A stretch of 64,000 nucleotides of DNA from positions 7,559 to 71,558 of the forward strand of contig JAVBJL010000004.1 of assembly GCA_030827005.1 (NCBI GenBank). Reading direction: 5' to 3'. The translations under genes and the position numbers were made by a program. This document shows, piece by piece, positions 16,323 through 59,291 of this stretch (the stretch's first letter is position 1; the number at the start of each line of letters is the position of its first letter). Source of the DNA: Wigglesworthia glossinidia. Lineage in GTDB: Bacteria > Pseudomonadota > Gammaproteobacteria > Enterobacterales > Enterobacteriaceae. Under the pieces are notes generated by a model, which saw only the letters and a list, made by a program, of their open reading frames with translations, had not been told where the DNA came from and ran no database searches.

Positions 16323-16758
16323 CTATGCTCCTTTTATATACCTTCTTAAATATAATTCGTCTATTTGTTTTTGCAATGTTTTATCTTCAAAAGTTTTAAT
16401 TATCATATTACGACGTGTTTCTAGAATTTTAAATGCATTTAATTTGTCTTTTTTTTTTCCAATTATTTTTTGCTATATTAACTTTTAATTTATAACTATT
16501 AATCTGCTTATTATGTTCGGAAATTACATCGCATAAGCATATAAGAAACGTTTGATAGTTATTCCATATTTCTATATTTAAACCGTATTTTATCATACTT
16601 TCTTGTAAATTACGTCGGTACTCAGTTTCATAAAATATAAGAATATTTAATTTTTTTACTAATTTTATATATATATCATTAGTTTTTTTTAATTGTAAAC
16701 ATGCTTCTTGAAAATCAATTTTTGCATGTATTTTTAGTACTTTAAAAGTTAATTTCAT
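16323..16758 (-). pseudogene. fliJ: fliJ split by a one-base frameshift in an A10 tract; removing one A gives a 144-aa FliJ (possibly rescued by slippage)
   Basis: The 109-aa ORF ends WKKKRQIKCI*. The shifted frame continues KLNAFKILETRRNMIIKTFEDKTLQKQIDELYLRRYIKGA* to TAG at 16323, matching the FliJ C-terminus. Confidence 0.88.
16449..16458 (-). repeat. A10 homopolymer at the fliJ frameshift
   Basis: Plus strand T10 at 16449-16458. Confidence 0.95.
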
Positions 16759-16787
16759 AATTATAATTTTTAATTTATTTTAGTTTT

Positions 16788-18149
16788 TTAAGAAAATAAT
16801 TCCTTTAATTTTTGATAAGATTCTTCATACGAACATTTATTTTCTACATTTTGTTTTAAATATTTCATTAATTTTGGATAATTTATTATTGCTTGATCTA
16901 ATATGGGATCGTTTCCCGAAACATAAGCACCTACTGAAAGTAAATCTTTATTTTTTTGATAACTTGATATCCATTGTTTTATTTGTTGTATATGAGAAAA
17001 ATGTGATTTGTTTACTAAATTTGGCATAGTTCTGCTAATAGAAGTTTCAATTTCTATAGATGGATAGTGTCCTGATTCTGAAAGTTGTCTGGAAAGCACA
17101 ATATGACCATCTAAAATTGCTCTTGCAGCATCTGCAATAGGATCTTGTTGATCGTCTCCTTCTATTAAAACAGTATAAAAAGCTGTAATAGATCCATGAT
17201 TATGTGTTCCATTTCCAGTTTTTTCTACTAATTCGGATAATTTCGCAAAAACAGAGGGGGGATATCCTTTAGTTGTAGGAGGCTCTCCAATAGCTAATCC
17301 GATTTCGCGTTGTGCCATGGCATATCGTGTTAAGGAATCCATAATTAGTAAGACGTGTTTTCCTTGATTTCTAAAATCTTCTGCAATACGCGTCGCATAA
17401 ACTGCTCCTTGTATACGTAACATTGGTGAAATGTCGGCAGGAGCTGCAATTACTACAGATCTAGAAAGACCGTCTTTCTTTAAAATGTTATCAATAAAAT
17501 CTTTAACTTCGCGACCTCTTTCTCCAATTAATCCGACGACTATAATATCCGCTTGAGTATATCTTGCCATCATGCCAAGTAGCATACTTTTTCCAACACC
17601 AGATCCTGCAAATAACCCCATTCTTTGTCCTCTACCTACAGTAAGGAGTCCATTAATCGCTCTTACGCCAACATCTAAAATTTTTGTAATAGGATCACGT
17701 AGTAGGGGGTTAATAGGGTTAGTATATAAAGATTCTTTTCGCAATATTTTTGGTGGAGCTAATCCGTCTAAAAATTGACCGGAACTGTTCAAAACTCTTC
17801 CTAGTAATTCTTTTCCTAATGGAAGAAGTCGTGTAGAAATTTTTCCGTTGATCAATTCCGGCGAATATACTTTGGCTCCTGGAAATATTCCTTCTACATT
17901 TTCTAAAGGAATTAAAAATAAATTTTTTTCTTTAAAGCCTACTACTTCACATTCTATTTGAATAATAGATTTATCGGAATATTTTTCAATAATACATGTT
18001 GATCCAATAGGTAGTTGTAATCCAGTTACTTCCATAATTATACCGGTAGCACGAATTAATTTGCCGTATTGGTAGTAATCAGGAAGATTTGAAATTAAAT
18101 TTTCTTGATTATTGATTTTATCGATCCATCTTTTTAATTGTAATGTCAT
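16788..18149 (-). CDS. fliI: Flagellar export ATPase FliI
   Basis: Walker [10 protein letters not shown]; [10 protein letters not shown]; [13 protein letters not shown]. Confidence 0.99.
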
Positions 18150-18820
18150 TGAATATTATCTTTTTTTAATGTTTGACAGATATGATTCCATTTTGATTCT
18201 AGTGTTGCATCAATTTCTCCGTCTTCAGAAAGAATACGAAAACCTCCGCGTAACAGTTGTCCGTCCCCTAAAATACGCCATCCTTGATTTTTAAATGTAT
18301 CTCCAAGATATTCTTGTAATAAATTTAAATCATCTGGATGTACATAAAGACGTAGATCTTCTCCTAAAAAATTTTTTTCATGTAATAATTTTTGAATATC
18401 TTTTATGAGCATTTTAGTATTGCATACAGGCGATGTTTTTATTATTTTTTCTGATATTTGTAGTGCAATTTGTATTATACGCGATGGAATTACTGCGTCT
18501 AATCCTAATATACTAGATTTTAATTCTTTAATTAAATTATCTATTTTTATTTTTTTTTCAATTTGTTGATTATTAAATTGTAATAATCCTTCTCTTTTTC
18601 CTTCTTCTAACCCTTTTAAATATCCAGAATTTTTTCCCGATTTATACCCGGATTCAAATCCTTTTTTTTGTGCTTCAATCGTTTTTTTTTCTATTACCTT
18701 TTCGAGGTTTTCCTGATTATCATTTAATATGCTTTTTTGATTTTCTTTTATGTTATTAGGAGTAGCAAAATCTTGTACTAACCATTTTGTCCAATCAGAT
18801 TGTTTATAATGTTCAGACAT
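18146..18820 (-). CDS. fliH: FliH (start refined to MSEH, overlapping the fliG stop)
   Basis: GxxxG repeats; LYVHPDDL; GG(F)[12 protein letters not shown]. Confidence 0.95.
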
Positions 18821-19799
18821 AATTTTCTCCGTCTTGATCAAGCGTTATTTCGTCTGCATCTGATAAACGTCTAATAATGTCTAATATTTTTTTTCTTTCA
18901 GATTCTACTTTAGATAGTTTTATTGGTTTACTTAAATTTAAATCCTCTTGTAAGATTTCTGCTTGACGTTTAGACATATTATTTAATATTTTATCTACTA
19001 ATTCTTTTTTACAGCCTTTTAAAGCAATAATAAGCGAGTCGTTTTCTACTTCTCGTAATATACGTTGTAAATTTTGATCATCTAAATTTTGTAAATCATC
19101 AAAAATAAACATTTTTTTAATTATTTTTTCTGTCAATTTTTGATCTAATTCTTTCATTGATTGAATTGTTTTGTCTTGATCGGATTGCATATAATTTAAA
19201 ATTTCTGCTGCTGGTTTAATACCCCCTTGAGCACTTAAATATGATTTGTGGTTTTGAATTAAATCATTTAATGTAAATGTTAATTCTTTAATTGCTAAAG
19301 GTGTTAATGTAGATAAATTAGCAATTTTTATTAAAATATCTCGACGTAAATTGTCAGTAAATTTTGATAAAATATCAGCTGCTATATTTCTTTTTAATAA
19401 AGATATTGTTACTGTAATCATTTGAGGGTGCTCATCTTTAATAATAGAAAAAATTTTTTCTGGATTCATAGTGTTTAAAGTTTCAATTCCCTTACAAAAT
19501 TGAGAATTTTTAACATTAAATTCATCCAATAATAAGAGTGCTTGTTCTTTTCCTAGAGCGCTACTTAATGTTGTTTTTAAATAATCATAACATTCTTTTT
19601 CTGGGCTAATTAATGTTTGAGCATCATTATGAAATATTTCTAAAACTTCTTTTAAATCTGATTTTGAATAAATACCTAAATTAATTATATTTTTACTAAT
19701 TATTTCTATTTCTTGTTTATTTAAATGTTTAAAAATTGACGTTGCTATTTCTTCTCCGAGAGCCAACATGATAATTGCGCTACTTTTATTTAGATTCAT
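18813..19799 (-). CDS. fliG: Rotor protein FliG
   Basis: EHPQ motif; GGIKPAAEILN; MFIF; charged C-terminal ridge. Confidence 0.98.
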   Translation of the reverse strand: MNLNKSSAIIMLALGEEIATSIFKHLNKQEIEIISKNIINLGIYSKSDLKEVLEIFHNDAQTLISPEKECYDYLKTTLSSALGKEQALLLLDEFNVKNSQFCKGIETLNTMNPEKIFSIIKDEHPQMITVTISLLKRNIAADILSKFTDNLRRDILIKIANLSTLTPLAIKELTFTLNDLIQNHKSYLSAQGGIKPAAEILNYMQSDQDKTIQSMKELDQKLTEKIIKKMFIFDDLQNLDDQNLQRILREVENDSLIIALKGCKKELVDKILNNMSKRQAEILQEDLNLSKPIKLSKVESERKKILDIIRRLSDADEITLDQDGENYV

Positions 19800-21478
19800 G
19801 ATGTTTGTTTTTCTTTTTCAATCCATTGACTTAGAATTTTAGCTACTAATTTTGGTTGTTTAGTTGCAATTTCTTTTAGATCTTTAATTTTATTTTCTAT
19901 TAAAATATTATCATTTTCTATATTTTTTTGATTTTTTAATTGTGTATCTTGATCTTCTGAAATAAGATTATTATCTTTTTGAAGACTTGTTTGTTTTATT
20001 ATATCTTGTTGAGTTTTTTGTTGATTTTTCCATATTTTTATAAATTTATTCCAAATAAACCAGATTAAAATGAAAGATATTACGTATTTGATCATACTTA
20101 TAATTATATTTTGTATATGTATGTTTTCCCAAAAATAAATATGCGATACTTCTTCTTGATTATCAGCAAAATTTATATTTACGATATCTAACGTATCTCC
20201 TCTATTTTCTGAAAATCCCATAGTTTCTCGTACCAAAGAATTTATATCTCTCATTTCTTGATCATTTAGTTTTATTTGATTCCCGTCAATATTACGATTG
20301 TTTATAACTACAGCAACAGATAATTTTTTTAATATTCCAGGAGAAAATTGATTATGTGTAATTGTACGATCTATTTCGTAATTAATAATTTTTTCATTTT
20401 GTATATTGCTAGATTTTTCAGTGTTATTTGATATATTTTCTAAGTTTTCAGATGAAGATGGTTTAGATTGTATATTTTCATTTGTAGGCAAAATATCTGT
20501 AGAAGCTACTTGTGCTGGTTGGTTGCTTAAAGCACCTGGAACACCCTCCGGGATATTACCAAAATTTTTATTTTCTGTAATTTGTTGACTTCTAATTGTC
20601 ATTTCTTCGGGATTAGTATTTGGTTTATGTTGTTCTAAAGTTTGTTCTATTTTAGTAAAATCCATTTGTGCAGTCACTTCGGCACGAATATTGTTTATCC
20701 CTACTATTGGAATTAAAATGTCTTCAATTCTTCTACGATATTCTGATTCAATTTCACGAGTGTATTTCAATTGTGTGCTATTATTATTTTCTTTATTTTC
20801 TATTTGAGTAAGTAGTTTACCGTGATTATCGACTAAAACAATATTGCTCGCTGGTAAATTAGGAGTAGTTCCTGATACCAACCAGGTGATTGCTTGAATT
20901 TGACTATTATCAAGTATTCTTCCTGGATGTAATGTAAGAGTAATGGATGCTCTTGCTGGTTGCTTGTCTTTTATAAAAACAGAATTTTTTGGAATAGCAA
21001 TATGTACGCGTGCAGATTTTATAGGATTTAATATCTCTATTGTGCGTGCAATTTCTCCTTCTAGTGCACGTTGGTAGTTAATTTGTTCATTAAATTGACT
21101 TATTCCAAAACTAGAAGAATCTAGGATCTCAAATCCTACTGAACCTCCTTTTGGTAAATTTTTTTGTGCAAGTAGCAATCTTGTTTTATATATTTGATCA
21201 GCTGGAATCATAATAGATCCATTTGTATTTGAAAACTTATATGGAATATTTGCGGAAGATAGTTCGGATATAATTGCTCCTCCATCTTGATCACTAACGT
21301 TGCTATATAATATTTGATATTCTGGGGTTTTCATCCACATAATTAATACTGCTATTAATGTAGCTCCAAAAATTCCAGATATTAGAAAAAGATATTTTGG
21401 ATTGCTAAAAATTTTTTTAAAAAAATCAGATAAATACTCATTTGATCTGCTTTTCATGCTTTCAGAAAAAACATCCAT
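19796..21478 (-). CDS. fliF: MS-ring protein FliF
   Basis: GFEILDSSSFGISQFNEQINYQRALEGEIARTI; ARVHIAIPK; two transmembrane helices. Confidence 0.98.
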   Translation of the reverse strand: MDVFSESMKSRSNEYLSDFFKKIFSNPKYLFLISGIFGATLIAVLIMWMKTPEYQILYSNVSDQDGGAIISELSSANIPYKFSNTNGSIMIPADQIYKTRLLLAQKNLPKGGSVGFEILDSSSFGISQFNEQINYQRALEGEIARTIEILNPIKSARVHIAIPKNSVFIKDKQPARASITLTLHPGRILDNSQIQAITWLVSGTTPNLPASNIVLVDNHGKLLTQIENKENNNSTQLKYTREIESEYRRRIEDILIPIVGINNIRAEVTAQMDFTKIEQTLEQHKPNTNPEEMTIRSQQITENKNFGNIPEGVPGALSNQPAQVASTDILPTNENIQSKPSSSENLENISNNTEKSSNIQNEKIINYEIDRTITHNQFSPGILKKLSVAVVINNRNIDGNQIKLNDQEMRDINSLVRETMGFSENRGDTLDIVNINFADNQEEVSHIYFWENIHIQNIIISMIKYVISFILIWFIWNKFIKIWKNQQKTQQDIIKQTSLQKDNNLISEDQDTQLKNQKNIENDNILIENKIKDLKEIATKQPKLVAKILSQWIEKEKQTS

Positions 21479-21723
21479 TCAGTGTTCCTAAGATTAAATT
21501 CATTTAATTTAAAAAATTTTGCTAAAGATGAAGTCTTATATTTTTTACTTTTAATTAACATTAATAGTTTTACATATAAAAAATCTATTGAAAGGAAAAT
21601 AAAGCAGTTTTTTTAACCTTAATTTTTTGAATTTGAATGCAGTTTAATAAGTTAATATTACTTATTGAATTAACATTTTAACAAAATAAAAATTTTAACA
21701 TATTGTAACGGAGTGAATTTGCA

Positions 21724-22041
21724 ATGAATATTAATAATAAAATATTAGACACTATGCATTTATTAAAATCCAACTTAGATTTAGAATTTAACACAGATAC
21801 GCAATATAATCTTCGTTCTAAAAGCTTTTTAAGTATTTTTAGCGAAAGTATAAAAAAAATTAATGCACTAGAAGCTCGGTCAGAAAATACATCAAAAAAA
21901 TTCGAATTAGGCAGTAGAGACGTCGAGCTACACGATGTTGTTTTAGATATGCAAAAAGCGTCAATAGCTTTACATTTTGGAATTCAAGCAACTAACAAGT
22001 TGATCGGAGCTTACCAAGAAATTATGAATATGAATATATGA
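21724..22041 (+). CDS. fliE: FliE
   Basis: LHDVVLDMQKASIALHFGIQATNKLIGAYQEIMNM; divergent from fliF. Confidence 0.97.
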   Translation: MNINNKILDTMHLLKSNLDLEFNTDTQYNLRSKSFLSIFSESIKKINALEARSENTSKKFELGSRDVELHDVVLDMQKASIALHFGIQATNKLIGAYQEIMNMNI

Positions 22042-22061
22042 TGCACAAAACCGTTATTATT

Positions 22062-22454
22062 TTACTTAATGGAACTCCAGGCGGAAGATATTTTCCTTAG
22101 CAAAAAGTCTACGTGTCGTATTTTCTTTGTATCATTTTTTAGATTTGCTTCTGTCAATACACAAATACAGTATACGTACAAACTTTTTAAGTTACGAACA
22201 AGAAAAAAGTTATCGTCTTTCTTTAGTGCAGGTATAAGTCCTGACGCGATAATAGAGATAGCATACGAAATTGATTCTCCCTTCATAGGGGTTTTTTTAT
22301 TTTGTATCAAAAATACTGCTCTTTTAAGTTCTGAATGTAATATTTCGAATAAGATTTCAATTAATTCTTTTGGATTAGCGTTTAGAACCTTTTCTTTTAA
22401 AGAATGAAGGTTCAATTTTTTATAAATATTAATTGCACATCGATTCTGATACAT
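22062..22454 (-). CDS. fliS: Flagellin chaperone FliS (start refined to MYQN)
   Basis: KGESISYAISII; NLKSLYVY; ANLKND; AW; GGAG upstream of the ATG. Confidence 0.93.
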   Translation of the reverse strand: MYQNRCAINIYKKLNLHSLKEKVLNANPKELIEILFEILHSELKRAVFLIQNKKTPMKGESISYAISIIASGLIPALKKDDNFFLVRNLKSLYVYCICVLTEANLKNDTKKIRHVDFLLRKISSAWSSIK

Positions 22455-22483
22455 ATCCACACGCTCCAATTTTATATGTAGAT

Positions 22484-23968
22484 CTAATTTTTATTAGACG
22501 ATAATATCATGCTAATTTGTTTGCTAATTGATTCTGTTTTAGTTAAAAAAACATCTAATTTTTGAAATTGCACCTGATACAAATTCATTTTATTTTGAAT
22601 CATTTGTTGTGTATGTAAAATATTTTTATGTATCATTTGATTTTGCATTTCTAAATCTTTAATTTCATATTGGATAATACTTGCGCCATCTGATTTTTTG
22701 TCGTTATTAATATGTTCTTGAATCACTTGTGACATTTGTTTAATAAAACCTATTTGATCTTTTTTTCCGATAAGGAATTCTTTAACTTTAATCCAATCCA
22801 TATGAATATGTTTATTTAATTTATCCTGATCAAAAATTAATTTTCCGGTTTTTTTTTCTATATTTATTCCTAGATCTGTTAAGGAAGAAATTTTAGTCTT
22901 TTTATAGTCACAATAATTTATTAACGTACATTTTTTTAAACGATCAATTAAATGTGTTAATACGCTATCTCCAAATAAAGAACAGCTATCTAATTGACTT
23001 TTAGATTTATTTTTTAGATACGAATTTTCATTATTTTCTGGTATAAATTTTTTCAATTCTAAAGCTTGATCTAAAAATTTATTAAAACTTAGAACAAATT
23101 CTTTTAAGCTTTTTGATACAAGAGTTTTATCTAAAACAAATTGTAGTTTTTCTCCTTCATTAAATATTTTCGAATTATTTTTTGACGTTTTGATTAAGTT
23201 TAAGCTAACATTTTTTATTATATCTTTAATTGTATTATTTTCGCGGTAATATTTTATTCCATCAATTTTTACAATTGATCCTTGTGCTTTTTGATTTTCT
23301 TGTATCTTAGATTTTTTAGTTTGAACTGCATTTTTGTCGTTTTTTGGAAAATGCAACAGATCATCTAGTTGACTATCTCCTTCAACATTAATTGCTAATT
23401 TTCCATTTGATCCGAATATGTTCGATTTGATTACTAAACAATTCTCTTTAAAATTAGTAATATTAACTTCAGCATTTACGTTCAAAGCGAACTTATTTAT
23501 TGCTTTTGCTATTTTATCTAAAGTTGTATCATTTTTATTAAGTTTAATTCTTGTCGTTTTTACCGTATTATTTTTTTTATCTCCTTGAGTAATATTTAAA
23601 TAACGCACATTTTCTGAATTTCCTAAAATTATGTTTGATGCTTTTTGCAAAGATAAAGACAGAACATGTTTTTTTGCTAATTGTATTACTTCTACCTGAT
23701 ACGAGTTTTCAGAATTTCCTCCGGTTGCGACAAAACATTCATTTTCATTCGGTTTAAAAGAAGAAAAAGATTGCGAATCGATATCTAATTTTTGTAATAT
23801 ATTTTGTAATAGATAATGAACTTTTCCCCATGCACTTATTTTACTTTTTATTTTTTCTGTTTTAATCTGCAGTGGTTTTAATCTTAAATTTTCAACTTCT
23901 TTTAAGTGCTGAATTAATTCGGATGTAGCACCCCTTGATCCAATACCTAGCATGGATATATTAGCCAT
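22484..23968 (-). CDS. fliD: Filament cap FliD (start refined to MANISMLGIG)
   Basis: FliD N-terminus; LTDLGI..GKLIFD; QFQKLD; AGGA upstream; a sigma28 promoter lies within the longer called ORF. Confidence 0.92.
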   Translation of the reverse strand: MANISMLGIGSRGATSELIQHLKEVENLRLKPLQIKTEKIKSKISAWGKVHYLLQNILQKLDIDSQSFSSFKPNENECFVATGGNSENSYQVEVIQLAKKHVLSLSLQKASNIILGNSENVRYLNITQGDKKNNTVKTTRIKLNKNDTTLDKIAKAINKFALNVNAEVNITNFKENCLVIKSNIFGSNGKLAINVEGDSQLDDLLHFPKNDKNAVQTKKSKIQENQKAQGSIVKIDGIKYYRENNTIKDIIKNVSLNLIKTSKNNSKIFNEGEKLQFVLDKTLVSKSLKEFVLSFNKFLDQALELKKFIPENNENSYLKNKSKSQLDSCSLFGDSVLTHLIDRLKKCTLINYCDYKKTKISSLTDLGINIEKKTGKLIFDQDKLNKHIHMDWIKVKEFLIGKKDQIGFIKQMSQVIQEHINNDKKSDGASIIQYEIKDLEMQNQMIHKNILHTQQMIQNKMNLYQVQFQKLDVFLTKTESISKQISMILSSNKN

Positions 23969-24000
23969 CTTGTATTCCTGAATTTTTGGTTTACTATATT

Positions 24001-24027
24001 GTATAGGTACGATATCTAAAAAGTTTA
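24001..24027 (-). promoter_or_regulatory. sigma28 promoter of fliDS
   Basis: Minus strand TAAACTTT-N11-ACCTATAC. Confidence 0.6.
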
Positions 24028-24123
24028 AGTACATATCAATTTGAGATAATCAAAAAAAATATTAAAGGTTTAAAAAAATCTGAAAAGATTAAATAATGCA
24101 ACGTAAAAAATTATCATATTTTT

Positions 24124-24150
24124 TAAAGCTTTATCGATCTAAGCCGATAT
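24124..24150 (+). promoter_or_regulatory. sigma28 promoter of fliC
   Basis: TAAAGCTT-N11-GCCGATAT, near consensus; followed by SD AGGGAG. Confidence 0.9.
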
Positions 24151-24206
24151 CCCTATCGTATTATTGCAACATTCAATAAAACTTCGCATAAAATAGGGAG
24201 TCGTAC

Positions 24207-25475
24207 ATGTCTCATGTAATTAACACTAACATGCTATCTATAACCGCTCAGAATAATCTAAATAAATCGCAAACTTTTCTCAACACAGCTATTCAAAGAT
24301 TATCCTCTGGTCTAAGAATTAATAGTTCTAAAGACGACGCTGCCGGTCAAGCAATTAGTAATAGATTTACATCACTTATTAACGGATTAGGACAAGCAGC
24401 AAGAAATGCAAATGATGGAATTGCAGTTGCTCAAACGGCAGAAGGAGCAATTAATGAAATTAACGAAAACATGCATGCCATTCGAAGACTGACTGTGCAA
24501 ATTAAATCTACCGCTTCAGTTTCTAAAGCAGATAAAAAATCAATTCAAGATGAAATAAAAAAACGTCTTAACGAAATTGATCGCCTATCAGAACAAACAG
24601 AATTTAACGGAATGAAAATTCTAAGTCAAAATCAAAGCCTCATGGTACAAATAGGAGCAAATGACAGTCAAGTAGTCAATATAGATTTGTTTAAATTAAA
24701 TACAGAATCTTTAAACATTAAAGATTTTAACGTAAATTCAGACGCGCTATACGCATCTGATATAAGCGAAAGTGAAGTTTTAAATGCTAAAGTTGGAGTA
24801 GAAGCAACAAAAATATTAGACGCTAGCACTCCGGAAAATAAGAAAAACATACAACGCCAGCTATATGAATCAAACGGAGAATATTTTTTCAAACAAATCG
24901 ATGGAAACGAATATTATAAAGTTGAAATATCAAATACAGGAGAAGCGAAATATAACTCATCTACCGTGGCAGAATTAACTCAAAATCCTCCAAAAGCAGT
25001 CAAAAAAGCCGAAATCACAGTAGAAATTGATTCAAAAACTATAGCAGCAGGGGAAATGCTAAAATCTTATATGAAAGACGGAGTAGAGCAGTATCTAATA
25101 TACAAAAAAGAAGGAGATAAAGAAATTTATCACGAAGCAATTATTAGTAACACAGGAAAAGTAAAAAAAGGATCCGAGTTGATTTTTGAAACACTATTAA
25201 CCATGGATCCATTGAAAGAAATAGACAATGCTATTGCAAAAATAGACGATATACGAGGATCTTTAGGAGCAACTCAAAACCGACTAGGATCTGTAATTAA
25301 TAGTTTAAGCACTACAATAGCAAATTTAACACAATCAAGATCTAATATTTTAGATGCAGATTTTGCAACAGAAGTTTCCAATATGAATCGCGCTAATATA
25401 CTGCAACAAGCAGGAACAGCAGTTTTAGCTCAAGCCAATGCAGTTCCACAAAATATTTTAGCGTTGCTGAGATAA
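24207..25475 (+). CDS. fliC: Flagellin
   Basis: VINTN..AQNNLNKSQ; RLSSGLRINSSKDDAAG; ILQQAGTAVLAQANAVPQNILALLR. Confidence 0.99.
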   Translation: MSHVINTNMLSITAQNNLNKSQTFLNTAIQRLSSGLRINSSKDDAAGQAISNRFTSLINGLGQAARNANDGIAVAQTAEGAINEINENMHAIRRLTVQIKSTASVSKADKKSIQDEIKKRLNEIDRLSEQTEFNGMKILSQNQSLMVQIGANDSQVVNIDLFKLNTESLNIKDFNVNSDALYASDISESEVLNAKVGVEATKILDASTPENKKNIQRQLYESNGEYFFKQIDGNEYYKVEISNTGEAKYNSSTVAELTQNPPKAVKKAEITVEIDSKTIAAGEMLKSYMKDGVEQYLIYKKEGDKEIYHEAIISNTGKVKKGSELIFETLLTMDPLKEIDNAIAKIDDIRGSLGATQNRLGSVINSLSTTIANLTQSRSNILDADFATEVSNMNRANILQQAGTAVLAQANAVPQNILALLR

Positions 25476-25493
25476 TAAAATATAAACAAAAAA

Positions 25494-25528
25494 ATATGGT
25501 CCTCATAAAAAGGACCATATACTTTTTT
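25494..25528. terminator. Bidirectional intrinsic terminator between fliC and trhO
   Basis: ATATGGTCCT-cataaaa-AGGACCATAT with an A run before and a T run after. Confidence 0.85.
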
Positions 25529-25539
25529 ATATAGAAAAT

Positions 25540-26478: not shown

Positions 26479-26575
26479 TGTGCACTATTAAATGGTTATA
26501 TTTTTGCAGTATAAAATAAATATATGTGAATTTCAAATTGTATAAATTTAAGTATTTTAAATATACTGATATATA

Positions 26576-36677: not shown

Positions 36678-37766
36678 TTAATTATAATAAGCTTTTTCTA
36701 AATGATATACTTTAAATAAGTATCTACGTGATTCTAATGAAGAATGATGAGCACATATATATTGGTACACATCATCAGGATGTAAATGATTGATAATCTG
36801 AAACGCTTTCATTTGATCACGAGAAAATACCGATAACATAGCTGTTACGCCACCGTGATAAGATGCAATAGTAGCATATTTTTTAGATATAGGATTATTA
36901 ATAGAACTTAAATAATTATCACGTAATAAAGATAAATAGGCAGTCCCTATATCTATATTTTTTTCTGGATTTAATAGCATATTTTTGGTTGGTCGACCAA
37001 CTTTACCCTGCATTTTAAACACATCTCTACCTGCTGTATTTTGTACGATTTGCATTAAACCTAGTGCTTTAGAATTACTTATAGCTCTGGGGTTAAAATT
37101 TGACTCAGCTTCTATAATTGCTAAAATTAAAGATTTATCAATATTATATTTTTTTGCAGATTTATAAATAAAATTTAAATATTTATGTGCCCTTTTGTTT
37201 GAACGATCAAATTTTAAAGGTATTTTAATAGACCAAACTTGGTTTATGTTAATAAAATATGTTTTTAATTTTGTTTTTAATAAATAATCTGCAAACTTAT
37301 TTGCGCGCCATTGATGGCGTACAGGAATACCGTGATGATCTACCACTTGACCATATAATAATGGTTCTTTTCTAGAAAAATTAGAATATTGATTATTTAA
37401 ATCAAAATCCGAAAAATCATTATTCATCAATAAAGCAATTACGATTGCTTTATGTAAATAAGCTATTGGATTTCGATGCATAGTTGTCTCGATAATGATA
37501 TTTTTAAAAATAAAATCTATATGAATTAATGTAATATTATTATACGTAATTTTGGAAAGATTTTTCGAATCAATAATTAAAATTTTGTTATTCTTCCATA
37601 TATTGTCTGAATTTTGAGATATATTTTGTACAATAATATTTAAACTGTTACTATATTTTAATTGATGTTGATCAAGTTTATTTTGACTATTAGAACAGGA
37701 CGTTTGTAAAAAAATTATAATTAACAGAAACGATATATTTTTCATAAAAATTTGAATCAAGTTCAA
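36678..37766 (-). CDS. mltC: Membrane-bound lytic transglycosylase C
   Basis: Lipobox LQTSC; catalytic ESNFNP; ALGLMQIV; synteny with yggX-mutY. Confidence 0.95.
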   Translation of the reverse strand: MNLIQIFMKNISFLLIIIFLQTSCSNSQNKLDQHQLKYSNSLNIIVQNISQNSDNIWKNNKILIIDSKNLSKITYNNITLIHIDFIFKNIIIETTMHRNPIAYLHKAIVIALLMNNDFSDFDLNNQYSNFSRKEPLLYGQVVDHHGIPVRHQWRANKFADYLLKTKLKTYFININQVWSIKIPLKFDRSNKRAHKYLNFIYKSAKKYNIDKSLILAIIEAESNFNPRAISNSKALGLMQIVQNTAGRDVFKMQGKVGRPTKNMLLNPEKNIDIGTAYLSLLRDNYLSSINNPISKKYATIASYHGGVTAMLSVFSRDQMKAFQIINHLHPDDVYQYICAHHSSLESRRYLFKVYHLEKAYYN

Positions 37767-39239: not shown

Positions 39240-39911
39240 ATGCAAAAAAAAAATCATATTCGTAGCTTTGTTGTACGTCAAAGGCAATTAAAAAAAAATA
39301 AATTATTGTTTGAAAATAATGATTATAAAAAATATATAGTACACTACAAAAAAGAATTTATAAATTTTCAATTTCTTTTTAAAAGACAATCTTCAATTAT
39401 AATAGAAATTGGTTTTGGATCCGGTATATCGCTAATTCAATCTGCAAAAAATAACTTCAAGAAAAATTTTTTTGGAATCGAGGTGTATTTATCAGGAATT
39501 ATATCTTGTTTAAAATCTATCAAAATAAAAAAGGTGACAAATTTAAAAATTATATATTATGATGCAGTAGAAGTATTAAAAAATATGATTTATGATAATA
39601 CTATATCGCAGATACAACTATTATTTCCAGATCCTTGGAATAAATCACGTCATCATAAAAGAAGAATATTTCAAAAAGAATTTATTAAAATTTTATATCG
39701 TAAACTCATTCAAAAAGGCGTTGTTTTAGTGATTACAGATTCGGAATCTTATTTAGATTATATTTTATATCTAATAAATTCTACTAAGTATTTTAAAATT
39801 TCAAGCGACTTTTCTTCGCTTTTTTGTAAGCACGAGTTTCCTACAAAATTTGAAACTCTTTGTATAAACAAAAAAAGAATTTTTTTTACTTTAATTTTTA
39901 AAAAAATCTGA
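39240..39911 (+). CDS. trmB: tRNA m7G46 methyltransferase
   Basis: IRSFVVRQ; EIGFGSG; FPDPWNKSRHHKRRI; TD.ESY; TKFE. Confidence 0.97.
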   Translation: MQKKNHIRSFVVRQRQLKKNKLLFENNDYKKYIVHYKKEFINFQFLFKRQSSIIIEIGFGSGISLIQSAKNNFKKNFFGIEVYLSGIISCLKSIKIKKVTNLKIIYYDAVEVLKNMIYDNTISQIQLLFPDPWNKSRHHKRRIFQKEFIKILYRKLIQKGVVLVITDSESYLDYILYLINSTKYFKISSDFSSLFCKHEFPTKFETLCINKKRIFFTLIFKKI

Positions 39912-45579: not shown

Positions 45580-45626
45580 TTTAATAAATAAAAATTTTAA
45601 TTTATATAAAAATTTCGGGAGGTAAA

Positions 45627-47142: not shown

Positions 47143-47150
47143 GGTTATAT

Positions 47151-49565: not shown

Positions 49566-49706
49566 AATTTTAACTAAATTATCAAAAATTTTTTTAAAAA
49601 TTATGTATATTCAATGCATATTAAAAATATGTACGTCTTATAAGAATTACGTTCTAATAGAGTAAATGATCAAAAATTAATTATTTAAATATGTAAGTGA
49701 AAATTA

Positions 49707-50786
49707 TTATTTTTTATTTAATCTAGTAGTCCATTTTAATTTTTTATTAAAAAATAAAGGAACGATATACTCATTTTTATTTATTTTTAATTTTTTCTTT
49801 TCTTTTGGTTTGTATGAAGATTTAAATAAATTAATTTTTTCTTTATTAATAGGTAAATTATAAAATAGAGCTCCATTAATAGAGCAAAATTCTTCCAGCT
49901 TATCTAAAATATTAAGATCGTCAAAAATCGTTGCGTACATTTCTAAAGCAATAGGCGCGTTGAATATTCCAGCAAATCCTTGATCGCATTCTTTATTACT
50001 GATAGCATGAGGCGCGCTATCTGTACCAAGAAAAAATCGATTGCAATTACTAGATAGTGCAGCTTGTAACGCAAGTTGGTCCTGTTCTTTTTTTAACAAA
50101 GGAAAACAATAAAAATGCGGTTTAATTTTTTCAGATAACATATCATTTCGATTAAACATAAGATGGTGTGGCGTAATAGTCGCTCCTAAATAAATACTTT
50201 CTGATATTACGTAATCCACTGATTCTTTTGTAGAAATATGCTCGAGAACGACTTTTAATTGTGGAAACAATCGTCGTATTGGCTGCATAATGTTGTTTAT
50301 AAATTTTGATTCTCGAGCAAATACGTCAATGTTTTTGTTATATAATTCTCCGTGAATAAGTAAAATCATGCCAATTTTTTGCATTATTTCTAATATTGGA
50401 AAAATTTTTTTTATTTTATTAATTCCATGATGTGAATTTGTTGTAGTGTGCGATAAGTACATTTTAGCAGCAATAAATATTTTTTCTAAAAACCCTTTAA
50501 TAAGAATATTTTTATTAAAATTTTCTGTTAAGTAACAAGTAATAAGCGGTTCAAATTTGTGATTTTTTGGTATGGCTGCACAAATATTTTTTTTATACTC
50601 ATATGCTTGCGATAAATTAGTGATTGGATTAGCTAAGTTTGGCATCACTATAGCTCTTTTAAAGATACGACTAGTATATGGTAAAACAGTTTTTAAAATA
50701 TCATTTTCTCTTAAATGCACATGAAAATCATCTGGTTTTCTAATAGTCAGAATGTTGTTATTTGAAATAAAATTTTTATTAATCAT
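49707..50786 (-). CDS. pyrC: Dihydroorotase
   Basis: PDDFHVHLR; AIVMPNL; HGE; EHIST; TPHHL; LGTDSAPH. Confidence 0.98.
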   Translation of the reverse strand: MINKNFISNNNILTIRKPDDFHVHLRENDILKTVLPYTSRIFKRAIVMPNLANPITNLSQAYEYKKNICAAIPKNHKFEPLITCYLTENFNKNILIKGFLEKIFIAAKMYLSHTTTNSHHGINKIKKIFPILEIMQKIGMILLIHGELYNKNIDVFARESKFINNIMQPIRRLFPQLKVVLEHISTKESVDYVISESIYLGATITPHHLMFNRNDMLSEKIKPHFYCFPLLKKEQDQLALQAALSSNCNRFFLGTDSAPHAISNKECDQGFAGIFNAPIALEMYATIFDDLNILDKLEEFCSINGALFYNLPINKEKINLFKSSYKPKEKKKLKINKNEYIVPLFFNKKLKWTTRLNKK

Positions 50787-50905
50787 ATCTTATTATATTA
50801 TCATTTTTTATCTTATTTAAATAATCTTTAAAATATTGTTTCAATCACTAATTATGTTTTAAATTACAATCGTCTTGTTTATATATAAATATAATTTTTA
50901 TGTAT

Positions 50906-53248: not shown

Positions 53249-53528
53249 TATACTATACTCATTTTATGCACCGATGATTATTAGATGTTATAATATTAAA
53301 ACATTTTAACTGATAAATTATACTATAATTTTATTGTAATTATGTTATATGCTAAAATCTTAATTTTTTTGATATAACTAATTATTATTAAATTATTAAA
53401 TATTTTACATAAATTTTTAATGTTCTTTTTTAAAGAATTAGATATTTTATTTATAATAAACAAATATAATTTATAATTTTTTTATACATCTATCTTACAA
53501 AGATCATTAGAAATATAATTTAAAAAAA

Positions 53529-54509
53529 ATGAAAGTTTTTAAATCTTTAATTCAATTCATTGAAGTATCAAAAAATGAATCTTGTCAGCGAATTGACAAT
53601 TTTTTAAAAAAAAAATTGAAATATACTTCAAAAAATACTATTTACAAAATTTTAAGAACAGGAGAGGTACGTGTTAATAAAAAAAGAGTAGATCCTAATT
53701 ATAAAATAAGAATTAAAGATTTGATTCGTATTCCTCCAATAAAATATTCCCGTATTATAGAAAAGAAGATTTCTTATACATCATATATTAATTTTAACTT
53801 TAAAAATTCTATTTTATACGAAGATAAACATTTATTAATTTTAAATAAGCCTAGCGGAATAGCAGTGCATAAAGGCAGCGGTATAAATTGTGGAATTATT
53901 GAAAAATTACGCGATATATATCCAAAAAATTCTTTTTTAGAATTGGTACATCGTTTAGATAGAGGAACTTCCGGTATACTTTTAATTGCAAAAAAGCGTT
54001 CTACTTTATGTAATTTACATAAACAATTAAGAAGTGGCGAAATATATAAGGAATATTTAATTTTAGTGCACGGAAAATGTCAATTTAAAAGTAAAACAGT
54101 TTCTGTTTCATTAAAAAAACAATTACATTTAGATAAAATACTAAAATTTAAAAAACAAAAAATGTTGGTTGATAAAAATGGAAAATCGGCAATAACCAAC
54201 TTTTATGTAATTAAAATTTTTCGCAATATGACACTTCTTAAAGCAATTACTAAAACTGGTCGTATGCACCAGATTCGTGCACATGCTCAACACATTAATC
54301 ATCCTATTGTATGTGATTTAGTATATAACAAAATAAATAAAATAGAAGCTCCATTAGTTGATAAAAAAATTAATCGCATATTTTTACATGCTTCTAGCAT
54401 ACGTTTTTATCATCCAGATACACTGAAGCATCTTAATATTAAAGCGCCTCTAGATTATTTGTTATTAAATTATCTTAAAAAATTAAAAAAATCAAATCTT
54501 AAATCTTAA
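53529..54509 (+). CDS. rluC: 23S rRNA pseudouridine synthase C
   Basis: S4 domain; NKPSGIAVH; HRLDRGTSG; TGRMHQIR. Confidence 0.97.
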   Translation: MKVFKSLIQFIEVSKNESCQRIDNFLKKKLKYTSKNTIYKILRTGEVRVNKKRVDPNYKIRIKDLIRIPPIKYSRIIEKKISYTSYINFNFKNSILYEDKHLLILNKPSGIAVHKGSGINCGIIEKLRDIYPKNSFLELVHRLDRGTSGILLIAKKRSTLCNLHKQLRSGEIYKEYLILVHGKCQFKSKTVSVSLKKQLHLDKILKFKKQKMLVDKNGKSAITNFYVIKIFRNMTLLKAITKTGRMHQIRAHAQHINHPIVCDLVYNKINKIEAPLVDKKINRIFLHASSIRFYHPDTLKHLNIKAPLDYLLLNYLKKLKKSNLKS

Positions 54510-54733
54510 TATAGATTCTGGTTGCTAAAAGATATTTTTAAGAAAATATTTAATAAAATTAAAAATTACTATATTTCTTTATAAAAGAATATAATAAAAT
54601 ATACTTTAACTTAAGTCCAAATTATTCAGTATCAAATATAAATCTTGCATAAATAAAATTTAATCGTTATTTTATTTATACAATACTTGTTACATTGTAT
54701 AATGTATAATCTTTTTTATTTAAGAAGGACAAT

Positions 54734-54925
54734 ATGGCCGTTCAAAAAAATAAGCCCACAAGATCAAAAAGAGGTATGCGAAGATCACATGACAAAATAA
54801 AAATACCAAAATTGTCAATTGATCAAATATCAGGAGAAACACATTTACGACACTGTTTAACAAAAGACGGCTTTTATCGTGGAAAAAATATTTTAAATAT
54901 TAAGAAAAAAAATAAAAAAAAATAA
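54734..54925 (+). CDS. rpmF: 50S ribosomal protein L32
   Basis: [20 protein letters not shown]; GFYRG. Confidence 0.99.
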
Positions 54926-55202
54926 CAGTATGAATTTATCTAGAGATCTTTAAAGATTCTAGATACTATATGTTATAATATAATTTTTACATAAATTTAA
55001 AAATTTTTAATATACTTAAAATATATCTTATAAATCTTTTTAGCATTTTAATTCACAATTATACTACCTACTAGTACATATAAAATATAAAAAATATAAC
55101 TAGAATATTTAATATAGACAAAGAGATAAAAGATAAAAATTTCATGAATGTAACACAGCACATATAACATATATTCCCAGCTGAATGGATAATAAACAAC
55201 CG

Positions 55203-56162
55203 ATGAATACTTTTGCAATGTTGTTTCCAGGTCAAGGATGCCAAACAATTGGAATGTTAAAATCTTTTTTTAAAAAATTTTCTATCATCAAAGAAACATT
55301 TGATGAAAGTTCAGAAATTCTTAAATACGATCTCTGGAAAATAGTGAATAATGGTCCATGTGATACTTTAAATCAAACTGAAATTACACAACCGGCCATA
55401 CTATCTGCATCATTTGCAATCTGGAAGGTTTGGAAAAAATTATCTGGACAAAACCCTCAATTTATGGCTGGACATAGTTTAGGAGAATATTCAGCTTTAG
55501 TTTGCGCAAATAGTTTATCTTTTTCCGATGCAATAAAAATTGTTGCTTTACGGGGGAAATTTATGCAAGAATCTGTTAATAATAAAGTATGCGCAACTTC
55601 TGCAATTATTGGACTATCAGAAAAAATAATTAATTCAATTTGTAATCAATTTTCAGATTTTGAAATCGTATCTATTGCAAATTTTAATTCTCCAAAACAA
55701 ATAATAATTTCTGGACATAAAAATTCTGTAATTCAAGTTATGCAAAAATGCAAAATTTATGGTGCAAAATACGTAAAAATACTTCCCATTAGCATTCCAT
55801 CTCATTCAATTTTAATGAAACCTGCAGCAAAAAAATTAACAAGTATATTAAATAATACAAAATTTTATCGACCAAAAATACCGATAATTAGCAGTATTAA
55901 TACGCAAGTACAATCTGATCCAAAACAAATAAAAAAATCACTTTCGCGTCAAATTTACAGCCCGATTTTATGGAATCAAACAATACATTATATGATTAAT
56001 AAAAAAGTATATGAATTTTTAGAGGTAGGTCCAGGAAAAATTTTATCTAAGTTAATGAGAGACTTTTTAAACAATTCAAAAATCTCCGGAATATCTTTAA
56101 GTGATCCAGAAATTATGATACAACAGACTAAAAAATATAAAAAGATAATTTATGCAATTTAA
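55203..56162 (+). CDS. fabD: Malonyl-CoA-ACP transacylase (start refined to MNTFA)
   Basis: FPGQG; TQPA; GHSLGEY; SH; EVGPG. Confidence 0.98.
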   Translation: MNTFAMLFPGQGCQTIGMLKSFFKKFSIIKETFDESSEILKYDLWKIVNNGPCDTLNQTEITQPAILSASFAIWKVWKKLSGQNPQFMAGHSLGEYSALVCANSLSFSDAIKIVALRGKFMQESVNNKVCATSAIIGLSEKIINSICNQFSDFEIVSIANFNSPKQIIISGHKNSVIQVMQKCKIYGAKYVKILPISIPSHSILMKPAAKKLTSILNNTKFYRPKIPIISSINTQVQSDPKQIKKSLSRQIYSPILWNQTIHYMINKKVYEFLEVGPGKILSKLMRDFLNNSKISGISLSDPEIMIQQTKKYKKIIYAI

Positions 56163-56886
56163 AGAAAAAATTTCATTAATCACCGGAGCAAATCGAGGTA
56201 TAGGAAAAGTAATTGCAAAAAAATTACTTGAAAATCATGCAATAGTTATTGGAACTTCAACACAACCCGAAGGAGTAAATAAAATTAATAATTATCTAAA
56301 TGGCCAAGGAATAGGAGTACAACTAAACGTATGTGATGCTGATTCAATTACATTATGTATAGAAAAAATAAAAAAAATTTTTGGAGAAGTTGATATTCTT
56401 ATTAATAATGCAGGAATTATAAAAGATAATTTATTAATTAAAATGAAAGAAGAATATTGGAATAAAGTTATTAATACAAATTTAACAGGCGTATTTAGAA
56501 TGTCTAAAGCAGTTATACCTGGAATGTTGAAAAAAAATTATGGAAGAATTATAAATATCGGATCAATTTCCGGATTTATAGGCAATCCGGGACAGGTAAA
56601 TTATGCTGCATCTAAATCTGGATTAATAGGATTTACGCACTCATTATCAAGAGAAGTTGCTAAAAGAGGAATTACAGTGAATATGATATCTCCGGGTTTT
56701 ATCGAGACTGATATGACAAAAATGTTATCTATGCAAAATAAACAAAAGATCCTATCCCATATTCCTATAAATAGATTCGGTTCAACAGAAGATGTTGCAT
56801 ACGCTGCAATGTTTCTGGCTTCTGATAAGGCTTCATATATTACAGGAGAAACTATACATGTCAATGGTGGAATGTATATGAAATAA
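56152..56886 (+). CDS. fabG: 3-oxoacyl-ACP reductase
   Basis: TGANRGIG; NNAG; YAASK; PGFIETDM. Confidence 0.98.
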   Translation: MQFKEKISLITGANRGIGKVIAKKLLENHAIVIGTSTQPEGVNKINNYLNGQGIGVQLNVCDADSITLCIEKIKKIFGEVDILINNAGIIKDNLLIKMKEEYWNKVINTNLTGVFRMSKAVIPGMLKKNYGRIINIGSISGFIGNPGQVNYAASKSGLIGFTHSLSREVAKRGITVNMISPGFIETDMTKMLSMQNKQKILSHIPINRFGSTEDVAYAAMFLASDKASYITGETIHVNGGMYMK

Positions 56887-56904
56887 AATTTAAATCTTAT
56901 TTAG

Positions 56905-56954
56905 TTGCATCCTTTTTTAAAGTTTTATAAACTAAAAACTTTCGCATAAGCGAA
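56905..56954 (+). promoter_or_regulatory. acpP sigma70 promoter and leader hairpin
   Basis: TTGCAT-N17-TAAACT followed by TTCGC-ATAA-GCGAA just upstream of the SD. Confidence 0.6.
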
Positions 56955-56974
56955 TTTGGTAGGAAATTTAAAAT

Positions 56975-57214
56975 ATGAGTACTATTGAAGAAAGTGTTAA
57001 ATCTATTATTGCGGAACAACTAGGTGTAAAAAAAGAAGAAGTAATAAACAGTGCATCTTTTGTGGATGATCTTGGAGCAGATTCTTTAGATACAGTGGAA
57101 TTAGTTATGGCATTAGAAGAAGAATTTGATACTGAAATTCCAGATGAAGAAGCGGAAAAAATCACTACAGTTCAAGCTGCTATTGATTTTATCAAAGAAA
57201 GTAAAAAATCGTGA
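56975..57214 (+). CDS. acpP: Acyl carrier protein
   Basis: [20 protein letters not shown]. Confidence 0.99.
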
Positions 57215-57219
57215 TACTA

Positions 57220-57243
57220 CTTGGCGATCTTAAGATCGCCAAG
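57220..57243 (+). terminator. Hairpin after acpP (perfect 24-bp palindrome)
   Basis: CTTGGCGATCTTAAGATCGCCAAG starts 6 nt after the stop; the U tract is weak. Confidence 0.75.
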
Positions 57244-57445
57244 AATTTGTAGAAGTTAATCAAATATATAAAATAATTTTTACTTTTCACATAAAAAAAG
57301 AATTTAAATTAGAATTTAAAGTTTAACTTTTTTAATTTTTAATTAATTTATAAAAATTTTATAACATAATAAAATTAAAAAAATAACAATATTTTAGTTG
57401 CATATAAAAATCATCCTCAATTTAATTAAAAAAATAACTTATTAA

Positions 57446-58249
57446 ATGCGATCTTGGATTAATGGAATTGAAACAGATAAAATTTCTATAGTTAATAGAA
57501 GTTTACAATTTGGAGATGGATTTTTCACGACGTTTCCGTGTCTTAACGGAAAAATTCAATTTTTAAAAAATCACTTTCAAAGACTTTTTTTATCAGAAAA
57601 GAAATTACTTTTCAAAAGAATTAATTTTTCTGCATTATACGCAGAAGTTAAATTCGCATCTAAATGCATATCTAGTGGAATTATAAAAATTATAATTATA
57701 CGAGGGAACTCCGTACGAGGATATAAAACATCCCAGTGCGCAGAACCAGTACGCATTATTATATTAACAGAAAATTATTTAAATTTTAAAAAAATAAAAA
57801 AAAAAGGTGCAAATTTGTACTATAGTCCTATTAAAATACCAAGAAATCCATTATTATCTGGAATTAAGCATAACAATAAAATTGAACAGATTTTAGCATC
57901 GATTCATTTAGAAAAATCTAAAAAAGATGAAGCAATAATATTGGATAGAAAAGGATTTATTGTAGAATGTTGCGCATGTAACATTTTTTGGAGAAAAAAT
58001 AATTTTGTATTCACCCCGAGCTTAAAATATTGTGGAGTTCCTGGAATTATTAGAAAAAAAATAATCAATATTCTACCAAAACTTGGATATAAAGTAATTA
58101 TATCTTTTTTTAAAAGACATGATGTAATTCTTGCAGAAGAAGTTTTTATAACTAATTCGATTATTTCTATAATACCCGTAAGAATTATTGACAACCAACA
58201 TTTTTATAAACGTACTTTATTCAATAAAATTCGAAATTTCTTTTGGTAA
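57446..58249 (+). CDS. pabC: Aminodeoxychorismate lyase
   Basis: RSLQFGDGFFTT; PLP-lysine GIKH; ECCACNIFW; GVPGIIR. Confidence 0.96.
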   Translation: MRSWINGIETDKISIVNRSLQFGDGFFTTFPCLNGKIQFLKNHFQRLFLSEKKLLFKRINFSALYAEVKFASKCISSGIIKIIIIRGNSVRGYKTSQCAEPVRIIILTENYLNFKKIKKKGANLYYSPIKIPRNPLLSGIKHNNKIEQILASIHLEKSKKDEAIILDRKGFIVECCACNIFWRKNNFVFTPSLKYCGVPGIIRKKIINILPKLGYKVIISFFKRHDVILAEEVFITNSIISIIPVRIIDNQHFYKRTLFNKIRNFFW

Positions 58250-59291
58250 TGCGATATTTATTTATGACAATTTTATATAAAACAAAAAAACAAAAAATAT
58301 CTTTCATATATGCATGGATATTAACATTAATTTTTTTTTTAAAATACATGTTTTTTCTATAGAACCTTTAAATATTACAAATGAAACATTAATTACTATA
58401 CCTAAAGGTAGTACAATGCTTTATTTACAAAGACTTATGGAAAAAAAAAATATTATTAGAAGCAACTCACATCTTTTATCTATTTTAGTTAAAATCAATC
58501 CGAATTTAAAAAATATTAAAGCTGGAACATATGCTTTACATCCAGGGATGAATATTAAAGATGCACTGAATATATTCGTAATAGGTAAAGAAAAACAATT
58601 TTCCATCCAATTTATTGAAGGATCAACCCTAAAAGACTGTTTAAATATTTTAAAAAATTCTCCAGAATTACAACAAGATATAGATATGAATAACTTAAAT
58701 AATTTATCAAAACAATTAGGAGATAAATCAGAAATATTATTAGAAGGAAGTTTATATCCAGATAAATACCTCCATACTAAAAATACAAAAGTCAGCGAAA
58801 TATTAAAACGTGCAAAACAGAACATGACAAATATTTTAAAAGAAATATGGGAAACTAGAGATAAAAATTTACCATACGAATCCCCTCAATCATTATTAGT
58901 TATGGCATCTATTATTGAAAAAGAATCAGCATTAAAATATGAACGATTTAGAATATCTTCTGTATTTGTTAATCGATTAAAAAATAAAATGAAATTACAA
59001 TCAGATCCTACTGTAGAATACGGCGTTAAACTTTTACAACCTAATAAAAAAATAACTTATAAAGATTTTAAAATATCAACTCCTTATAATACTTATATTA
59101 TTTACGGACTGCCAAAAACAGCAATATCCATGCCAAGCTTGGAATCAATTCAAGCTGCTGCACATCCAGAGAAAAGTGATTATTTTTACTTTGTTTCTAC
59201 TGGAAATGGCGATCATATTTTTAGTCAAGATTTCGATAGTCATAAACAAGCAGTTAAAAATTATCGAAGATGGAAAAAAGGAAATAAATAG
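58249..59291 (+). CDS. mltG: Endolytic transglycosylase MltG, frameshifted at a T10 tract between its membrane anchor and the catalytic ORF (58314-59291)
   Basis: ATG overlaps the pabC stop (TAATG) and encodes basic residues plus a transmembrane helix; adding one T joins it to KIHVF...; [27 protein letters not shown] present. Confidence 0.9.
58331..58340 (+). repeat. T10 homopolymer at the mltG frameshift
   Basis: Ten consecutive T at 58331-58340. Confidence 0.95.

Follow-up and report, generated by a model that had tools for sequence, protein, structure and literature searches.

What is the status of a gene that is broken at a homopolymer and otherwise intact? The question is raised by fliJ and mltG, two genes in a 64,000-nucleotide (nt) stretch of DNA from the tsetse symbiont Wigglesworthia glossinidia (the window; positions 7559-71558 of contig C5 of genome G000, which comprises 719,035 base pairs (bp) in 10 contigs). 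An initial annotation had proposed, as a hypothesis, that the two breaks belong to a homopolymer-gated programme for remodelling the flagellum and the cell wall, in which slippage or tract-length variation could replace lost regulators. Our analysis upholds the breaks themselves and points to a different explanation: fliJ and mltG are probably members of a genome-wide class of genes with hypermutable A/T tracts, in which frameshifts are tolerated through slippage, with no dedicated programme.

We compared G000 with two genomes of the same genus, G001 (697,724 bp), which we take to be W. brevipalpis, with the same maternal transmission route, and G002 (719,535 bp, finished independently), which we take to be the Wigglesworthia of Glossina morsitans (W. 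morsitans). FliI of G000 is 92% identical to that of G002 and 78% identical to that of G001, and the median synonymous divergence (dS) between G000 and G002 is 0.67 (580 gene pairs); G000 is a third Wigglesworthia lineage beside the other two. Public sequencing runs, labelled X1-X23, were compared with G000 as well; Logan contigs omit minor variants. The window has a G+C content of 25.0%, and the genome as a whole is also 25% G+C. The fliJ locus is arranged as follows.

15039..16316, minus strand: fliK, intact (Pfam Flg_hook, 48.4 bits), with an in-frame A10 (T10 at 15178-15187)
16323..16448, minus strand: 3' part of fliJ, a -1-frame segment of 41 codons and a stop, conserved in G001 and G002
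16449..16458, minus strand: fliJ homopolymer, A10 in the mRNA sense and T10 on the plus strand; a shift of -1 or +2 restores the frame
16429..16758, minus strand: 5' part of fliJ, between fliI and fliK, an open reading frame (ORF) of 109 amino acids (aa) ending 8 codons past A10
16788..18149, minus strand: fliI, encoding the flagellar export ATPase, intact, the upstream neighbour of fliJ

The 109-aa ORF matches the Pfam FliJ profile at 38.8 bits (cut-off 28.4) over positions 3-87 of 123. It reads TGG-A10-GAC and reaches a stop 8 codons on; with A9 the frame would be open to the TAG at 16325-16323, giving a protein of 144 aa with a FliJ-like tail. The gene thus has the domain and the fliI-fliJ-fliK order of a fliJ gene; it reaches the expected length of about 145 aa only if the frame is shifted by -1. 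The G001 orthologue is intact at 150 aa, with an interrupted tract (A6-GAG-A9), and scores 45.9 bits against TIGR02473, below the cut-off of 50.45. In G002, fliJ is split at the same tract, which is A13 there and likewise out of frame. The mltG locus is arranged as follows.

57446..58249, plus strand: pabC, intact, the upstream neighbour of mltG, with an in-frame A10 at 57796-57805
58249..58362, plus strand: 5' part of mltG, its ATG overlapping the pabC stop; encodes an N-terminal membrane helix; the frame closes at 58360-58362
58331..58340, plus strand: mltG homopolymer T10; a shift of +1 or -2 restores the frame, and the zero frame also forms U_UUU_UUA
58341..59291, plus strand: mltG body, encoding the YceG domain in the open 58314..59291 frame, with an in-frame A10 at 58441-58450

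The 5' piece of mltG encodes 37 aa carrying the membrane anchor and aligns collinearly with the N-terminal end of G001 MltG, which is intact at 348 aa, has an in-frame T11 and scores 287.8 bits on TIGR00247. The body matches Pfam YceG at 260 bits over positions 1-274 of 275, and T11 would join the 5' piece to the 58314..59291 frame. The gene therefore has a complete YceG domain and an anchor helix in another frame, and it stands in the order pabC-mltG-tmk-holB, as in Escherichia coli. In G002, mltG is split at an identical T10.

The initial annotation had noticed no other broken gene in the window, and tblastn with the ORFs of G001 and G002 likewise flags no other split gene. It had also cautioned that two such cases are what homopolymer sequencing error would produce. 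Breaks falling exactly at 10-nt runs do look like errors of this kind, and two apparent frameshifts elsewhere in the same draft, in tamB and plsB, are assembly artefacts, with runs of N (scaffold gaps) at C7 ~63420 and C10 ~237575, respectively; on either side of the plsB gap there is overlapping duplicate sequence, around an A9 run. For fliJ and mltG, however, the independently finished G002 is broken at the same tracts, and the tract lengths of G000 recur in 7 to 10 independent runs that span several studies and three host labels, at depths of up to ~940. The fliJ T10 is present in contigs of runs X5, X7 and X8, and words spanning it occur in ten runs from four studies (2014-2024); the mltG T10 is present in contigs of runs X1, X2, X3, X4, X5, X7 and X17. 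Because the tracts of G000 recur in independent runs and the finished G002 is broken at both loci, the breaks are real and not sequencing errors, an explanation that we regard as refuted; the refuting case named in the initial annotation, both loci in frame in polished assemblies, was not borne out.

If the breaks are real, the genes might be young pseudogenes on their way to loss, unrescued, with a truncated 109-aa FliJ and an anchorless or absent MltG being tolerated. Genome reduction in such symbionts does proceed via homopolymer indels (PMC3017870), the hydrolase domain of FlgJ has already been lost and FliT is gone, and Baranov et al. (2005; PMC1088944) were doubtful of slippage in W. glossinidia. 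We estimated the ratio of nonsynonymous to synonymous substitution rates (dN/dS; Nei-Gojobori, G000 against G002) for the segment downstream of each shift. The ratio is 0.21 for fliJ (39 codons) and 0.14 for mltG (312 codons), and for four further genes broken at homopolymers in both genomes it is 0.24 (lpxK), 0.18 (zapE), 0.23 (der) and 0.21 (recJ); the genome-wide median is 0.174, with 10th and 90th percentiles of 0.075 and 0.283 (580 gene pairs). No stop codon has arisen in 39 to 447 downstream codons in either lineage, at a dS of 0.7-0.97. Purifying selection on the downstream frames is thus as strong as on intact genes, and the frames are not those of decaying pseudogenes; the relaxed selection downstream that the initial annotation had named among its refuting signs is not seen. 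The same state is found in der, a ribosome-assembly GTPase gene that is essential in E. coli. Moreover, flagellin is made in the milk gland by a species that carries the fliJ break, according to the expression results of Rio et al. (2012; PMC3280448). We therefore consider decay without rescue very improbable.

The presence of der among the broken genes bears on how special fliJ and mltG are. A genome-wide frameshift scan was one of the checks that the initial annotation had called for. We screened G000 for pairs of ORF pieces flanking an A/T run and both matching one stop-free frame of a sister genome, and inspected the candidates by hand; an intact, stop-free orthologue spanning the junction was demanded because out-of-frame translations of homologous DNA match too, giving false positives. 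Family names of the broken genes are from NCBIfam or Pfam, except for ubiE, which was named by eye against the intact G002 orthologue. By comparison with intact orthologues, at least 11 G000 genes have a break in a pure A/T run of 9-13 nt, as listed here.

fliJ: A10 in G000; broken at the same tract in G002
mltG: T10 in G000; broken at the same tract in G002
lpxK: A10 in G000; broken at the same tract in G002
zapE: A10 in G000; broken at the same tract in G002
der: A13 in G000; broken at the same tract in G002
recJ: A11 in G000; broken at the same tract in G002
amiC-like amidase gene: A9 in G000; not broken at this tract in G002
dapF: A9 in G000; not broken at this tract in G002
recD: A11 in G000; not broken at this tract in G002
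lipB: A11 in G000; not broken at this tract in G002
ubiE: A11 directly after the ATG in G000; not broken at this tract in G002

Six of the 11 breaks, including that in der, are thus common to G000 and G002, and in four of these six the tract differs between the genomes, both being out of frame all the same. About six breaks are private to G000 and about eight to G002. Unbroken orthologues have either a G, C or T within the tract or a tract of in-frame length. Each of the sister genomes has some 10 to 14 homopolymer-broken genes of its own: surA, uppP, thiL, cpoB, engB, pssA and others in G002 (names by eye, not all profile-checked), and trmD, rimM, tilS, hemC, rlmE, ubiE, a lolC/E-like gene, engB and others in G001 (also named by eye). 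Such breadth, with der, recJ, recD, lipB, ubiE and zapE among the broken genes, does not fit a programme specific to the flagellum and wall, and neither does G001, the more distant sister, in which fliJ and mltG are both in frame. Five of the 11 genes belong to the envelope or flagellum (binomial P = 0.05-0.11 under an assumed, unmeasured background of 20-25%), and an enrichment for such genes is not convincing.

Long A/T runs are themselves common in coding DNA. The window has 17 runs of at least 10 nt, all within ORFs, and 15 of them are in frame, as the initial annotation had remarked of trmB among others; the two out-of-frame runs are those of fliJ and mltG. Genome-wide, 580 intact genes contain 108 A runs and 2 T runs of at least 10 nt on the sense strand, and about 9 of about 115 coding tracts of this length (~8%) are out of frame. 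Two broken genes per 64 kilobases (kb) are therefore expected, and the window is typical. The gene trmB (39240-39911 of the window, plus strand) has its A10 directly after the ATG; tblastn found no match to it in G001 or G002 beyond a 22-aa syntenic remnant in G002, and the gene appears, from these comparisons, to be kept only in the G000 lineage.

Some of the genes found in the screen call for comment of their own. All three genomes have a poly(A) frameshift in the amiC-like peptidoglycan amidase gene (G000 C10:65900-67260, minus strand) and an intact amidase domain; the shift is at a first tract in G000 (A9, C10:66939-66947) and at a second one, ~45 codons further downstream, in G001 and G002. 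With the A11 of ubiE (C5:98323-98333, outside the window), the start codon and the body of the gene are in different frames; G001 ubiE is broken at a different A10, and G002 ubiE is intact. One G001 gene, rluC, is broken at a C5/G5 pair, with no A/T run involved. We rejected rpsG/fusA, rplB/rpsS and cdsA/rseP as split genes, since each is a pair of adjacent genes, together with two short antisense ORFs and rpmB, which has a C-terminal difference only; an ambiguous nlpD-like remnant was left out of the broken set.

A further possibility is that fliJ, and perhaps mltG, are phase-variable contingency loci, with replication slippage heritably toggling the frame to give a subpopulation that builds flagella and remodels its wall for transmission through the milk gland. 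Tract length does vary at fliJ. The contig of run X9 (depth 372; a 2025 data set) has T9, in frame, and X9 holds none of the fliJ T10-spanning words. Over positions 12900-24400 of the window (11.5 kb), X9 has all 35 substitutions of X5, X7 and X8, and the fliJ tract is the sole difference; 11 other runs of at least 9 nt in this interval have the same length in X9, and the in-frame tract of fliK is unchanged in X9, X5, X7 and X8. The distance from the TGG to a conserved TTA/CTA codon is 15 nt in X9, 16 in G000, 17 in G002 and 18 in G001; the fliJ tract has therefore visited all three frames over these four lineages. The tract is hypermutable and is polymorphic between otherwise identical strains. 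Hypermutable homopolymers fit with the absence of mismatch repair: neither a MutS_V domain nor MutL was found anywhere in G000, in searches to which control genomes respond.

These features recall Campylobacter jejuni, in which flgR, flgS and flhA reportedly undergo homopolymer phase variation, in work by Hendrixson and colleagues. There, too, A/T or G/C runs lie in flagellar genes, their length toggles the frame and canonical MutS/MutL repair is lacking. In C. jejuni, however, ON and OFF variants coexist, revert at measurable rates and have a motility phenotype, whereas here there is one length variant between data sets and the tracts are not special to flagellar genes. Several observations argue against phase variation. 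The initial annotation's appeal to tract-length variation holds for fliJ and fails for mltG, whose tract shows no length variation among 7-8 runs and is T10 in G002 too, and even at fliJ the out-of-frame allele is the one found in ten runs from four studies (2014-2024). ON/OFF switching would be senseless for der, recJ, lipB and ubiE, which have similar breaks at A/T runs. A contingency repeat should be exceptional against the genomic background, but the ~110 in-frame runs of at least 10 nt in 580 genes, together with the broken housekeeping genes, mark long tracts as that background and not as a maintained device. In G001, both genes are in frame, with a tract that is interrupted or of in-frame length. 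The stage-specific production of flagella, made only in the milk gland and larva in the observations reported by Rio et al. (2012; PMC3280448), would suit a switch, but fliC and motA are transcriptionally regulated, as described below, and FlhC and FliA are retained. We consider phase variation of these loci unlikely, and a narrower form of it slightly more doubtful still, namely that in this obligate mutualist, which lacks mismatch repair, the fliJ A-run is a heritable stochastic switch of flagellar export, with in-frame variants (the T9 of X9 being an example) enriched in the extracellular milk-gland population that seeds the larva and out-of-frame variants dominant in bacteriocytes.

The six breaks common to two species invite another interpretation, that the out-of-frame tract is favoured by selection as an expression throttle, keeping FliJ, MltG, AmiC and others low in bacteriocytes, with slippage rescue setting the dose. 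Persistence of six frameshifts at a dS of ~0.67, with both genomes out of frame even where the tract has changed (four of six), is what such selection would give, and several of the affected enzymes cut peptidoglycan (MltG, AmiC), so that an excess might be harmful. Persistence is equally expected, however, if slippage renders the reading frame nearly neutral, and the common set carries an ascertainment bias, having been selected for genes that are out of frame in both genomes. The ~6 and ~8 private breaks indicate turnover rather than maintenance, and in one population the in-frame fliJ allele reached the majority. We hold a selected throttle to be about as improbable as phase variation in general.

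The programme suggested for the window also leaned on missing flagellar controls, that is, FlgM, FliT, CheY input and the FlgJ hydrolase. Two genes of the window are relevant here.

7808..8101, plus strand: flgJ, 97 aa, rod-binding domain only (Pfam Rod-binding, 36.9 bits), no hydrolase domain
36678..37766, minus strand: lytic transglycosylase gene with an SLT domain, an intact 362-aa ORF (PF01464, 99.8 bits at C5:44356-44727)

The claim stands for three of the four controls. FliT, any Glucosaminidase domain and any CheY-type single-domain response regulator were not found in the G000 genome, whose only receiver domain is part of a 232-aa OmpR-type regulator. It probably fails for FlgM. A 95-aa ORF at C9:86612-86899 (plus strand, outside the window) is collinear with E. 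coli FlgM, with the same length, an MSI start and a C-terminal KIAD-LI; it scores 16.8 bits on Pfam FlgM, under the cut-off of 25, and has a 64%-identical orthologue in G002, while none was found in G001. Judged by this collinearity, the ORF is probably FlgM, a diverged anti-sigma-28 factor that annotation could miss. FlhC (253.8 bits) and FliA, that is, sigma-28 (277.8 bits), are also present in G000, each above cut-off. The SLT lytic transglycosylase is the only SLT match in the G000 genome, and is a more plausible partner than MltG for a FlgJ without hydrolase. Comparing W. morsitans symbionts between tissues, Rio et al. (2012; PMC3280448) found flagellin and the transcripts of fliC and motA in milk-gland and larval symbionts only. 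Transcriptional control therefore exists, and in W. morsitans, which carries both frameshifts, flagellin is made despite the fliJ break. With FlhC, FliA and a probable FlgM kept, the proposal that slippage replaces lost regulators is not supported.

Given that the broken genes are neither errors nor decaying and do not form a flagellum and wall programme, we return to tolerance of frameshifts through slippage. At 25% G+C and without MutS or MutL, long A/T runs would gain and lose bases fast during replication, as the fliJ tract in part shows, while downstream frames stay open under selection, with six breaks common to sister species at a dS of ~0.7. RNA polymerase may then slip on the same run, yielding a minority of in-frame transcripts, as in Buchnera and Blochmannia, and full-length FliJ and MltG would be made at a reduced level. 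By analogy with those symbionts, restoration of the fliJ and mltG frames during expression is most likely. Both genes have four features of slippage-rescued loci: a single indel of one nucleotide in an uninterrupted A/T run of at least ~9 nt (-1 to restore fliJ, +1 to restore mltG), sequences that are otherwise intact and collinear with the G001 orthologues in open frames, frameshifts conserved across species and runs, and purifying selection downstream.

For mltG, there may be a second route. Programmed -1 ribosomal frameshifting takes place at X_XXY_YYZ heptamers, for example in E. coli dnaX and, at U_UUU_UUA, in HIV-1 gag-pol. The zero frame of mltG reads A-UUU-UUU-UUA and so contains the heptamer of HIV-1 gag-pol, and a -1 slip there gives the MltG frame exactly. 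Sense-strand T runs of at least 10 nt are rare in coding DNA (2 against 108 A runs in the 580 intact genes), and the mltG tract is one of the two. Unlike programmed sites, however, mltG lacks a downstream stimulatory structure, the 100 nt downstream folding no better than shuffled sequence (z-score -0.51), and we rejected the idea of such a structure there. The heptamer comes about simply through the T10 run, and no argument from conservation separates ribosomal from transcriptional slippage.

Several observations weigh against slippage rescue or temper it. Baranov et al. (2005; PMC1088944) found A/T runs of every length to be equally frequent in coding and non-coding W. glossinidia DNA, from which they inferred that this species may lack transcriptional slippage. 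Their run statistic would be accounted for just as well by weak selection in a symbiont, but the caution stands. The only RNA contig over mltG has the genomic T10, although the majority species would show T10 either way, and mapping the raw RNA runs X21-X23 on the mltG operon yielded host poly(A)-like reads only, none of them from the symbiont. The dN/dS value downstream of the fliJ break is imprecise, given a segment of just 39 codons. Lastly, the share of envelope and flagellar genes is borderline at an assumed background of 20% (P = 0.05), and a mild functional bias is possible.

Conserved homopolymer frameshifts rescued by transcriptional slippage have been described in Buchnera and Blochmannia (Tamas et al. 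2008 and Wernegreen et al. 2010, as summarised by Williams and Wernegreen 2010, PMC3017870), and the Wigglesworthia breaks resemble them, as far as that summary goes, in most respects: an AT-rich, reduced genome of an insect symbiont; a single indel of one nucleotide in a pure A/T run of 9-13 nt; a gene otherwise intact and evolving at normal rates; a frameshift conserved between species or populations; and intact orthologues with interrupted tracts. Essential genes are hit in both (dnaX and dnaG there, der in Wigglesworthia), as are envelope genes (erfK and ytfM there, mltG and amiC in Wigglesworthia). There are also differences: the symbiont clade, of tsetse, is another one and the genes are others, with at least 11 loci per genome compared to 4 to 8 in Blochmannia, and the RNA heterogeneity that was shown there experimentally is a prediction for Wigglesworthia. 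The sense-strand poly(T) case that also forms a canonical -1 heptamer, mltG, is a further difference. Within the genus, only 1-2 indels separate 6 of the 11 annotated W. morsitans pseudogenes from intact genes, as Rio et al. (2012; PMC3280448) pointed out, suggesting correction at homopolymeric tracts. Their set, as the main text presents it, was limited to genes truncated by at least 50%; fliJ is not mentioned in that main text, and the account there had no second close species with which to show that breaks are conserved under selection.

Our findings extend the "frameshifted but functional" class of genes from aphid and ant symbionts to a tsetse symbiont, with six breaks common to two species. 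They also carry a warning for annotation: in each Wigglesworthia genome, at least 11 genes would wrongly be called pseudogenes or truncated genes. The polymorphic fliJ tract provides a concrete locus at which to ask whether tract length differs between tissues. If the parallel with Buchnera and Blochmannia holds, flagellar export and peptidoglycan-cleaving enzymes are probably present at reduced, slippage-limited levels in Wigglesworthia, which would matter for maternal transmission and for immune signalling in the host.

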